Below are positions 3,958 to 7,635 of a DNA stretch of 9,151 nucleotides, in pieces (within the stretch, counting starts at the first letter, position 1; every line of letters begins with the position of its first letter). The stretch is from Promethearchaeota archaeon (GTDB lineage: Archaea > Asgardarchaeota > Odinarchaeia > Odinarchaeales > JBHLKK01), in assembly GCA_048939465.1 (NCBI GenBank), contig JBHLPL010000079.1, forward strand, positions 1-9,151. Reading direction: 5' to 3'. Under the pieces are notes generated by a model that was not told the origin of the DNA, ran no database searches, and worked only from the letters and a program-made list of their open reading frames with translations. The position numbers and the translations under genes are program-made.

Positions 3958-4005
3958 ATGACCAACAAGCAAGATTATTACGAAGTCCTCAGAGTGCACA
4001 CATAA
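3958..4005 (+). pseudogene. dnaJ: dnaJ 5' remnant (MTNKQDYYEVLRVHT*)
   Basis: ATG 35 nt after the dnaK stop encodes KQDYYEVLRV, matching the J-domain start KRDYYEVLGV (AGA is one base from GGA). It sits in the canonical dnaJ position and stops after 15 codons at the tRNA 3' end. Confidence 0.8.
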
Positions 4006-4091
4006 TGGTAGCCCGGAGGAGATTCGAACTCCTGTCAGCGGGTCCAAAGCCCGCTATGCTTAGCCATTATTGGCCACTACACCACCGGGCT
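4006..4091 (-). tRNA. tRNA-Gln(UUG) with encoded CCA and a 10-nt insert in the D-loop
   Basis: Minus strand reads AGCCCGG TG GTGT AGTGGCCAA[TAATGGCTAA] GCAT A GCGGG CTTTGGA CCCGC TGAC AGGAG TTCGAAT CTCCT CCGGGCT A CCA. Acceptor, anticodon and T stems pair fully. A1:U72 is typical of archaeal tRNA-Gln. Length is 86 nt, or 76 nt without the insert. Confidence 0.95.
4060..4069 (-). other. Putative non-canonical tRNA intron at position 21/22 (TAATGGCTAA)
   Basis: Exon GGCC (18-20a) pairs with insert GGCT as a 4-bp helix. Cutting 2 nt 3' of each helix strand removes exactly 10 nt and restores the D-loop AGTGGCCAA. Confidence 0.6.
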
Positions 4092-4161
4092 ATAGTTTCT
4101 GGTGTCTTGTACTAATTTGTAATCAATACCACTTCTTTTTAAGAATTCTCTTTTGGTCTGC

Positions 4162-6208: not shown

Positions 6209-7635
6209 ATGAATAATACAAATCCATTTATTCCAAATTCGTCGGAATCCATAAAGAAAGAAATGTTGGAAGAAGTTGGCCTTAGTAGCATTGAAGAGCT
6301 CTATAAGGATATCCCACCAGACCTGAGATTAGACCGTAAATTAGATCTTCCTGGTCCTCTTTCTGAACACGATGTTTATCGAGCAGTAAAAGAGATTCTT
6401 GGTAGGAACTGCACTACAGAAGATATGCCAATATTCCTCGGAGCGGGCGTATATCCCCATTACATTCCTGCGGTTGTCAAATCTATGACTAGTCGGGGAG
6501 AATTCTTAACGGCTTATACCCCATATGACTGATCTAGTGATCATTCAGGGGAAATCAAGCAGAGATATCCCAAGGAATACTTCAGGCGTTCTTTGAGTAC
6601 CAGAGCCTGATGGCAGAGCTCGCAGATATCGAAGTAGTAAATGCTTCAATGTACGATTGGGCCTCAGCTTTGGGAGAAGCTGCATTGATGTCAAAGCGAT
6701 TAACCAAACGTAACACTTTCTTAGTACCCCACATAATTCATCCAGAGAGACTGGCTACATTGAGAACTTATGCCACGCCGGTCGGGATAGATTTAGTGGA
6801 AGTTGGGTTTAGCAGTGAATCAGGTCAGTTGGACATCGAAGATCTGAAGAGCAAAATCTCTGAGGACGTAGCTGGAGTATACATAGAAAATCCCTCATAT
6901 CTTGGTTTTTTGGAAACGCAAGTGGATGAAATAGCAGAACTCACGCATGATAATAAAAGCCTCCTAATAGCAGGCGTGGATCCCACATCTCTTGGAGTCA
7001 TAAGACCACCAGGAGATTACGATGCCGATATAATCATTGGGGAGGGGCAACCACTGGGGAGTCCGATGAATTTTGGAGGGCCGCTTCTGGGCATATTTGG
7101 GTGTAAGGACGATAGACGAATGATTAGGCATCTGCCGGGACGCTTAATTGGCATGACCACTACCGAAGACGGTAAGAAACGGGGGTTTACTATGACGCTA
7201 GGTTCAAGGGAACAGCACATCAGAAGGGAAAAAGCAACATCAAACATCTGTACGAACGAAGCTCTGGGTTGCGTGGCGGCCGCGGTTTACTTAACTTTGC
7301 TCGGTCCAGTAGGCATGCAAAAACTTGGAGAGATTATTCTTCACAATTCACATTATGCTATGAAAAAAATAGGGGAAATTACCGGAGTCGAAACACCTTT
7401 GTTTGAAGCGCCTCACTTTAAGGAATTTACAGTGAATGTCGACGAAACCGGAGTCGGCATAAGTGATATTCAGAAGAGTCTTATTGATTTAGGTGTTCAT
7501 GGAGGAAAAATAATCAAAAAGGAGTTTCCTGAATTCGGGGAGACCTCGCTCTTCTGTGTTACGGAAATACATACTCGAGAAGATATCCTTAAACTGGTCG
7601 ATGCATTGAGCGAAATTGTTGGAGGAGGAACTTGA
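6209..7635 (+). CDS. gcvPA: Glycine cleavage system P protein subunit 1, intron-containing: join(6209..6524,6554..7635), 465 aa after splicing
   Basis: Exon 1 has PFIPN, FLGAGVYPHYIP and SRGEFLTAYTP. Exon 2 has (Y)QAEISQGILQAFFEYQSLMAEL, NASMYD, GEGQPLG, FGGP, LPGRLIG and REQHIRREKATSNICTN. The joined length is 316+1082=1398 nt, a multiple of 3, with one terminal stop. Confidence 0.93.
6525..6553 (+). other. 29-nt BHB-type mRNA intron in gcvPA (ATGACTGATCTAGTGATCATTCAGGGGAA)
   Basis: Central helix CCCC(6519-6522):GGGG(6548-6551); 3-nt bulges AT|A (6523-6525) and AA|A (6552-6554); inner hairpin 6526-6547 with 8 Watson-Crick pairs, one C/T mismatch and a TAGT loop; outer pairs A6518:T6555 and GCTT(6512-6515):AAGC(6557-6560). 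It contains the in-frame TGA (6530-6532) and shifts the frame. Confidence 0.9.

Follow-up and report, generated by a model that had tools for sequence, protein, structure and literature searches.

A tRNAGln gene with an enlarged D-loop

Is a 10-nt insert in the D-loop of the tRNAGln(UUG) gene of an Asgard archaeon a very small intron, or is it an expansion that the tRNA tolerates or suffers from? The question was raised by a gene in a 9,151-nt window, which is a whole 9.15-kb contig carrying hsp20, an ArsR-type regulator gene, grpE, dnaK, the tRNA gene, a ribophorin-I-like gene, and gcvPA/gcvPB. The comparisons described here suggest that the ten nucleotides are probably a tRNA intron of minimal size that is inserted at D-loop position 21/22 and spliced by proteins; the cuts would be made by the tRNA splicing endonuclease EndA. 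The features of the gene are collected in Table 1.

Table 1. Features of the tRNAGln(UUG) gene in the window
Feature	Positions	Strand	Remarks
tRNAGln(UUG) gene	4006-4091	minus	86 nt; A1-U72, 4-nt variable loop, encoded CCA
5′ exon	4070-4091	minus	tRNA positions 1-21, ending in ...GGCCAA; same as the 5′ part of the intron-less D-arm in genomes G003-G006 of the same order
10-nt insert TAATGGCTAA, proposed mini-intron at 21/22	4060-4069	minus	removal gives a 76-nt cloverleaf
3′ exon	4006-4059	minus	tRNA positions 22-76, starting with GCAT...
Central helix H, 5′ strand	4072-4075	minus	exon bases G18, G19, C20, and C20a
Central helix H, 3′ strand	4062-4065	minus	intron bases GGCT, with AA and then the 3′ junction after them
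Anticodon TTG	4045-4047	minus	

Read on the minus strand, the gene has an acceptor stem AGCCCGG/CCGGGCT with the A1-U72 pair, a D-stem GTGT/GCAT, an anticodon stem GCGGG/CCCGC with the loop CTTTGGA (UUG), the variable loop UGAC of 4 nt, a T-arm AGGAG-TTCGAAT-CTCCT, the discriminator base A, and an encoded CCA. The D-loop, AGTGGCCAATAATGGCTAA, is 19 nt in length instead of about nine, as the initial annotation had noticed, and the segment to which that annotation drew attention (4056-4082) coincides exactly with the minus-strand D-arm, its stem and loop included. It was found that ARAGORN misfolds the intact gene and calls it a tRNAAla(agc). The Rfam tRNA model gives it 29.4 bits, just over the cut-off of 29, and aligns only with a 14-nt D-loop insertion. 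When 4060-4069 was deleted in silico, ARAGORN reported a canonical 76-nt tRNAGln(ttg), and only in this form is the D-loop 9 nt in length. The minimum-energy fold of the precursor is the cloverleaf with a small additional hairpin in the D-loop. In this hairpin, GGCC of the exon and GGCT of the insert form all four pairs (G.U, G-C, C-G, and C-G) and close a 6-nt loop AATAAT. The initial annotation had proposed cuts 2 nt 3′ of each strand of this 4-bp helix, and such cuts do leave the normal tRNAGln that ARAGORN recognizes.

Covariation and conservation of the insert

The assembly was scanned for Gln-type acceptor stems and UUG anticodon arms, and a single gene was found for each of Gln(UUG) and Gln(CUG). 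The assembly is 1.96 Mb in length and 91% complete, so that "the only Gln(UUG) gene" holds for the assembled part, and an insert-free Gln(UUG) copy may lie in the unassembled part. The tRNAGln(CUG) gene (G000:C134:29155-29269, minus strand) reads GTGT-AGCGGTC-AAAAAA-GATC-AA-TCAT in the D-arm and has, besides a canonical 37/38 intron, an insert of 10 nt at the junction where Gln(UUG) has its own. Its helix is GGTC:GATC, compared with GGCC:GGCT in Gln(UUG), and the difference includes a double change from C-G to U-A. Thus, the intron strand tracked the exon change at position 20.

The Gln(UUG) gene has 100% identity to its counterpart in the sister species G002 and 98% to that in G001, and both species keep the insert and its helix. 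Thus, the insert is not an assembly accident. Since the neighboring ribophorin-like protein is only 76% identical between this genome (G000) and G002, the perfect conservation of the tRNA gene reflects a genuine constraint. Between G000 and G001, there are two differences in the entire Gln(UUG) gene, both within the insert. The Gln(CUG) genes of G000 and G002 differ at 14 positions, of which 11 are in the 29-nt canonical intron, two are in the insert loop, and one is at the variable D-loop position 16. When these two comparisons were pooled, changed positions amounted to 4/20 in the insert versus 1/152 in the exons (Fisher P = 0.0006). The free loop bases, four per insert, have changed at a rate (3/8) similar to that of the canonical intron (11/29), while the helix strand has no changes.

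Geometry of the putative splice sites

Both predicted junctions are located 2 nt 3′ of a helix strand: GGCC-AA/U and GGCU-AA/G, the slash marking the junction. Judging from one sequence alone, three equivalent 10-nt placements are possible for the insert. The insert variant of G001, TAACGGCTAG, ends in AG. Since the last base of this insert is G, the conserved A21 is kept only if the cuts are made 2 nt 3′ of each helix strand. Thus, the G001 variant settles the three-position sliding ambiguity in favor of these sites. This 2-nt spacing is the rule of the archaeal endonuclease.

The motif itself is only a relaxed one. The inner helix h′ is absent, and the predicted 5′ site lies within the 6-nt hairpin loop. 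On the outer side, the D-stem is set apart from helix H by the unpaired A14-G15-U16, which together with the opposite strand makes a 3x2 internal loop. The lack of a second helix inside and the imperfect outer helix had both been pointed out from the start. With an offset D-stem and no inner helix, the motif places neither of its cut sites in a true bulge of 3 nt between two helices, and bulges of this size next to even a single flanking helix (h or h′) were not found in the 10-nt insert. The 4-bp helix is weak by itself. It is the comparison of sequences, that is, the covariation, the junction rule, and the substitution pattern, and not the fold, that raises the insert above chance.

Inserts at the same junction in other archaea

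Are such inserts common in the tRNAGln genes of Asgard archaea? An insert-blind search of 161 Asgard genomes yielded 115 tRNAGln 5′ halves. The D-loop is 8-9 nt in 107 of them, which makes the 19-nt loop an outlier, while eight have inserts of 10, 10, 18, 20, 20, 26, 26, and 28 nt. Inserts of 1-9 nt were found in 0/115, and the same was true of D-loops of 10-18 nt. In the same-order genomes G003-G006, the Gln(UUG) D-arm is GTGTAGTGGCCAAGCAT, which is identical to the predicted spliced D-arm and is also found in G033; the introns of the G003-G006 genes are placed elsewhere than at D-arm 21/22. The early suggestion of an intron at 21/22 with a relaxed BHL-like motif is thus supported by the orthologues, the CUG paralogue, the D-arms of these relatives, and the longer introns that others have at this junction.

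A metagenome scan limited to inserts of 1-15 nt gave 49 distinct inserts, all of 13-15 nt. When 59 insert-bearing D-arms were combined, two helix registers emerged. The type A helix is formed on G18-G19-N20-C20a, as in this gene, and is represented by 16 sequences with eight pair combinations; in the insert-blind set, the 4/4 pairs were obtained at zero shift only and in no case when the strands were slid by 1-3 nt. The type B helix is formed on G15-Y16-G18-G19. The covariation evidence was taken from insert-blind patterns only. A first GTDB-wide pattern was excluded from it, since this pattern was so loose that it gave many chance bacterial matches and since it forced the helix pairing.

Same-site type A introns of 12-28 nt occur in Woesearchaeota, Aenigmatarchaeota, Wukongarchaeum, Freyarchaeia, and metagenomes. 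They resemble the 10-nt insert in the junction, the G18-G19-N20-C20a helix, and the AA spacers. Most of them have an inner helix of 2-8 bp and a 3-nt 5′ bulge, whereas the 10-nt form has lost the inner helix. The longer ones (14-28 nt) add the inner helix and a 3-nt bulge just like genuine BHB/HBh′ introns; among them are those of 26-28 nt in Wukongarchaeum and one of 28 nt that has an 8-bp inner hairpin. Among the matches listed, the shortest beyond the genus are a 12-nt insert in a Woesearchaeota tRNAGln (L076), which is the nearest to the 10-nt form, and 13-nt inserts in Aenigmatarchaeota tRNAAsp; none of the listed matches outside the genus has a same-site insert of less than 12 nt. The cleavability of so small a substrate is therefore without precedent among the collected sequences. 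Taken as a series, these sequences suggest that the 10-nt insert is the smallest form in a genuine intron family that is widespread at this junction.

This distribution bears on the possibility that the insert is not spliced and that the mature tRNAGln retains a functional 19-nt D-loop with a mini-hairpin. The motif is too relaxed for a canonical BHB, and the conserved helix could merely hold the expansion compact. However, D-loops of intermediate size are missing from the Asgard tRNAGln set, and all the inserts are at least 10 nt in length and follow the helix-plus-2-nt rule, for which there would be no need in a tolerated expansion. Furthermore, the helix occupies G18 and G19, which are needed for pairing with the T-loop in the folded tRNA, and the longer same-site homologues are clearly introns. 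Retention of the insert is thus unlikely.

Abundant 13-15-nt D-loop introns were also observed in the tRNAGln genes of peat and sediment metagenome contigs (L165-L282). This family belongs to type B, with the helix shifted by two bases (GTGG:CCAC, CCAT, or CCGC), and five variants have only 3/4 pairs. In another case (L004, G014:C176:1-126), the 3′ two-thirds of a tRNAGln(UUG) lie at the start of the contig and are preceded by an odd D-arm region (GTGTAGTGGACAAGCAAGGATTGGCCTGGCGACAGG...). This tRNAGln(UUG) may be multiply interrupted.

Enzymes for splicing and aminoacylation

The genome encodes two EndA paralogues, C90 (204 aa) and C139 (191 aa). C90 is most similar to the catalytic alpha subunits of Aeropyrum pernix, S. 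tokodaii, and P. aerophilum (E = 1.5e-44 for the A. pernix alpha subunit). The Tyr-His-Lys triad is present in C90, with the His of GIDHSPF and the Lys of VRKK being kept, and a loop insert GIRKPKIPEF aligns with DVEKPRGADF of A. pernix, conserving the equivalent of K44. On the other hand, C139 has an Ala where M. jannaschii has His125, and the catalytic His is missing. It is known that, in vitro, the A. pernix EndA cleaves BHL substrates as well as a D-loop intron and requires Lys44 to do so (PMC3241643), and that Asgard EndAs are (alpha-beta)2 enzymes with the L1 loop (PMC5829648). The EndA of this genome is of the same broad-specificity (alpha-beta)2 type with the L1, or crenarchaeal-specific, loop.

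The genome also encodes RtcB. A side observation is that the RtcB copy at G000:C31:2961-5708 (minus strand) sits in a 973-aa open frame and matches Pfam in two pieces (1-57 and 45-426), which suggests an intein or another large insertion.

GatE is present, and nothing in the genome reached the cut-off for GlnRS. GatDE recognizes A1-U72, reads D-loop positions 19/20, and rejects tRNAGlu for its additional D-loop bases (PMC2330236). In this genome, the D-loop of tRNAGlu is 11 nt, compared with 9 nt for the spliced tRNAGln. Thus, the D-loop of tRNAGln is smaller than that of tRNAGlu only once the insert is out. As GatDE is the sole route to Gln-tRNA here, its rejection of additional bases (PMC2330236) is a further argument against a mature tRNAGln with a 19-nt D-loop.

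Splicing of the 10-nt insert may proceed as follows. In the precursor, the exon bases G18-G19-C20-C20a would pair with GGCU of the intron to form the 4-bp central helix of a BHB-like motif. The (alpha-beta)2 endonuclease would then cut 2 nt 3′ of each helix strand: the first cut would fall after A21, within the 6-nt hairpin loop, and the second after the final AA of the intron, in the small internal loop adjoining the D-stem. The exons would be joined by RtcB. G18 and G19 would be freed to make the elbow with the T-loop, and the D-loop would return to 9 nt, as GatDE-dependent formation of Gln-tRNA should need. From the comparisons described above, I infer that both cleavage and ligation take place.

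Another nuclease or an unknown factor might excise the ten nucleotides instead of EndA acting on the BHB-like motif, with RtcB as the ligase. Such a route would account for cut sites that do not lie in proper bulges, and 3-nt introns of nucleomorph tRNAs are known to be removed by an unknown route (Yoshihisa 2014, PMC4090602). However, a covarying 4-bp helix with a junction at a distance of exactly 2 nt on the 3′ side of either strand is the signature of EndA, and an EndA of the broad-specificity type is at hand in this genome, which leaves this possibility quite improbable.

Origin of the insert

How did the insert arise? The exon 10-mer just before it, TAGTGGCCAA, is identical to TAATGGCTAA at 8/10 positions, and the Gln(CUG) gene of G002 shows the same 8/10 identity. 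A tandem duplication had been put forward as an alternative to the intron at the outset. The resemblance is real, but it is not significant once the helix constraint is taken into account (P = 0.06-0.11). Any sequence that pairs with GGCC, a palindrome, must resemble it, and the duplication-like look is thus largely forced. That a recent duplication simply impaired the gene and that its tRNA, now defective or in decay, still shows the repeat in Gln(UUG) of G000 and Gln(CUG) of G002, is very hard to believe, because both tRNAGln genes have the insert with no further Gln gene found in the assembly, because three species have kept it despite the divergence of the neighboring protein, and because the rest of the gene is perfectly conserved with a compensatory change in the helix.

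Tandem duplication as the birth of a spliced insert is attractive but unproven, and shrinkage from a longer intron is equally possible. It is conceivable, albeit doubtful, that the substrate is a helix-only one with two-fold pseudo-symmetry (UAGU-GGCC-AA with UAAU-GGCU-AA) and that a single tandem duplication of the 10-mer T13-A21 gave rise to it. If so, duplicating a 10-mer with a palindromic core would make both helix strands and both cut sites, so that exactly one repeat unit would become removable. This would be a concrete route for de novo archaeal tRNA introns, which was left open by the 2026 Asgard census, and it would mean that the Asgard EndA needs no flanking helix.

Comparison with known introns

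Marck and Grosjean reportedly described relaxed archaeal splice motifs in 2003. D-loop introns as well as BHL motifs were already described in 2003-2011, and the 10-nt insert is an extreme case that calls for no new mechanism. The non-canonical D-loop intron of A. pernix pre-tRNAThr2(UGU), which is spliced by protein (PMC3241643), shares with this putative intron the location in the D-loop, the (alpha-beta)2 enzyme, the L1 loop, and the key lysine. In contrast, the A. pernix intron has a full BHB, whereas the motif predicted here has just the central helix with a loop of 6 nt, its outer helix being offset. The relaxed BHL, hBH, and HBh′ motifs of Crenarchaeota, Nanoarchaeota, and ARMAN (PMC4090602) likewise have a 4-bp central helix and one site in a loop. 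The present motif differs from them in that three unpaired bases across from the 3′ site separate the outer helix from H.

The initial annotation placed 10 nt at or below the shortest reported archaeal introns. This is true with respect to the range of 11-129 nt given in a review (Yoshihisa 2014, PMC4090602). However, BHL introns of 5-7 nt have been mentioned for A. pernix (Hirata et al. 2011, PMC3241643); these share the very short length with the present insert, which is therefore no length record. Similarly, position 21/22 is not demonstrably new, because the reviewed examples, 20/21 and 22/23, close with "etc." (PMC4090602).

Hidden intervening sequences in the D-arms of Asgard tRNAs have been described in a preprint of October 2026 (Goswami et al. 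2026, 10.64898/2026.10.13.758758) and by Valentin-Alvarado et al. 2024 (PMC11291895). They share with the present insert the look of an enlarged D-loop and the escape from standard callers. In the preprint census, the threshold was 10 nt and the median insert was 22-23 nt, and the present insert is thus at the very bottom of the range. A minority of the D-arm inserts in that census have no canonical motif and may use relaxed ones (10.64898/2026.10.13.758758). Under its strict rule, the 10-nt motif falls into the relaxed class, which is common by chance (10.64898/2026.10.13.758758). Odin-type lineages are unmentioned in the main text of the preprint. Here, the insert is found in both Gln isoacceptors.

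If the insert is spliced, both tRNAGln species of the lineage depend on the excision of a 10-nt intron having a central 4-bp helix only. This would define the minimum that an Asgard (alpha-beta)2 endonuclease has to recognize, and the precursor would be a ready-made minimal substrate for in vitro assays. The known picture of archaeal tRNA splicing would be unchanged. Since callers misread such genes, as ARAGORN did by reporting a tRNAAla, missing tRNAGln genes in Asgard annotations may be artefacts. A covarying helix 2 nt from each junction provides a cheap comparative rule for telling an intron from a D-loop expansion.

Genomic setting and other observations

The genome is rich in interrupted tRNA genes. 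ARAGORN found eight tRNAs without the intron search and 26 with it, while Rfam found 31. The genome-wide intron search of ARAGORN gave unreliable calls, and the tRNA genes were parsed by hand. It was revealed that an apparent Gln(ctg) gene called by ARAGORN at G000:C118:3938-4062 (minus strand) is really a tRNAAsn(GUU) with two introns: a 31-nt D-loop intron at about 14/15 and a canonical one. The D-loop intron of this tRNAAsn has a helix AGCT:GGCC (3/4 pairs), a bulge CAA, and an 8-bp inner hairpin.

In the window, a dnaJ-like start (MTNKQDYYEVLRVHT) follows dnaK at 3958-4005 on the plus strand and ends at 15 codons. The TAA of this fragment adjoins the CCA end of the tRNA gene, which is on the other strand. 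The 3′ flank of the tRNA gene cannot be aligned among G000, G001, and G002, while the 5′ side is conserved (the ribophorin-like gene and about 40 nt). The 3′ end of the tRNA gene looks like a rearrangement or integration junction. In the 5′ leader (4092-4116, minus strand), about 21 nt (TAGTACAAGACACCAGAARCT) are conserved in G000 and G002, as are the 17 nt available in G001. The leader holds ACACCA, which is complementary to tRNA bases 8-13. It was considered as a candidate for the outer helix of a BHB and was rejected, since ACACCA is unpaired in the predicted fold. A TATA-like sequence, TTAAAAAG, is located at 4135-4142. Farther along the window, gcvPA (6209-7635, plus strand) is split into two ORFs, 6209-6532 and 6610-7635.
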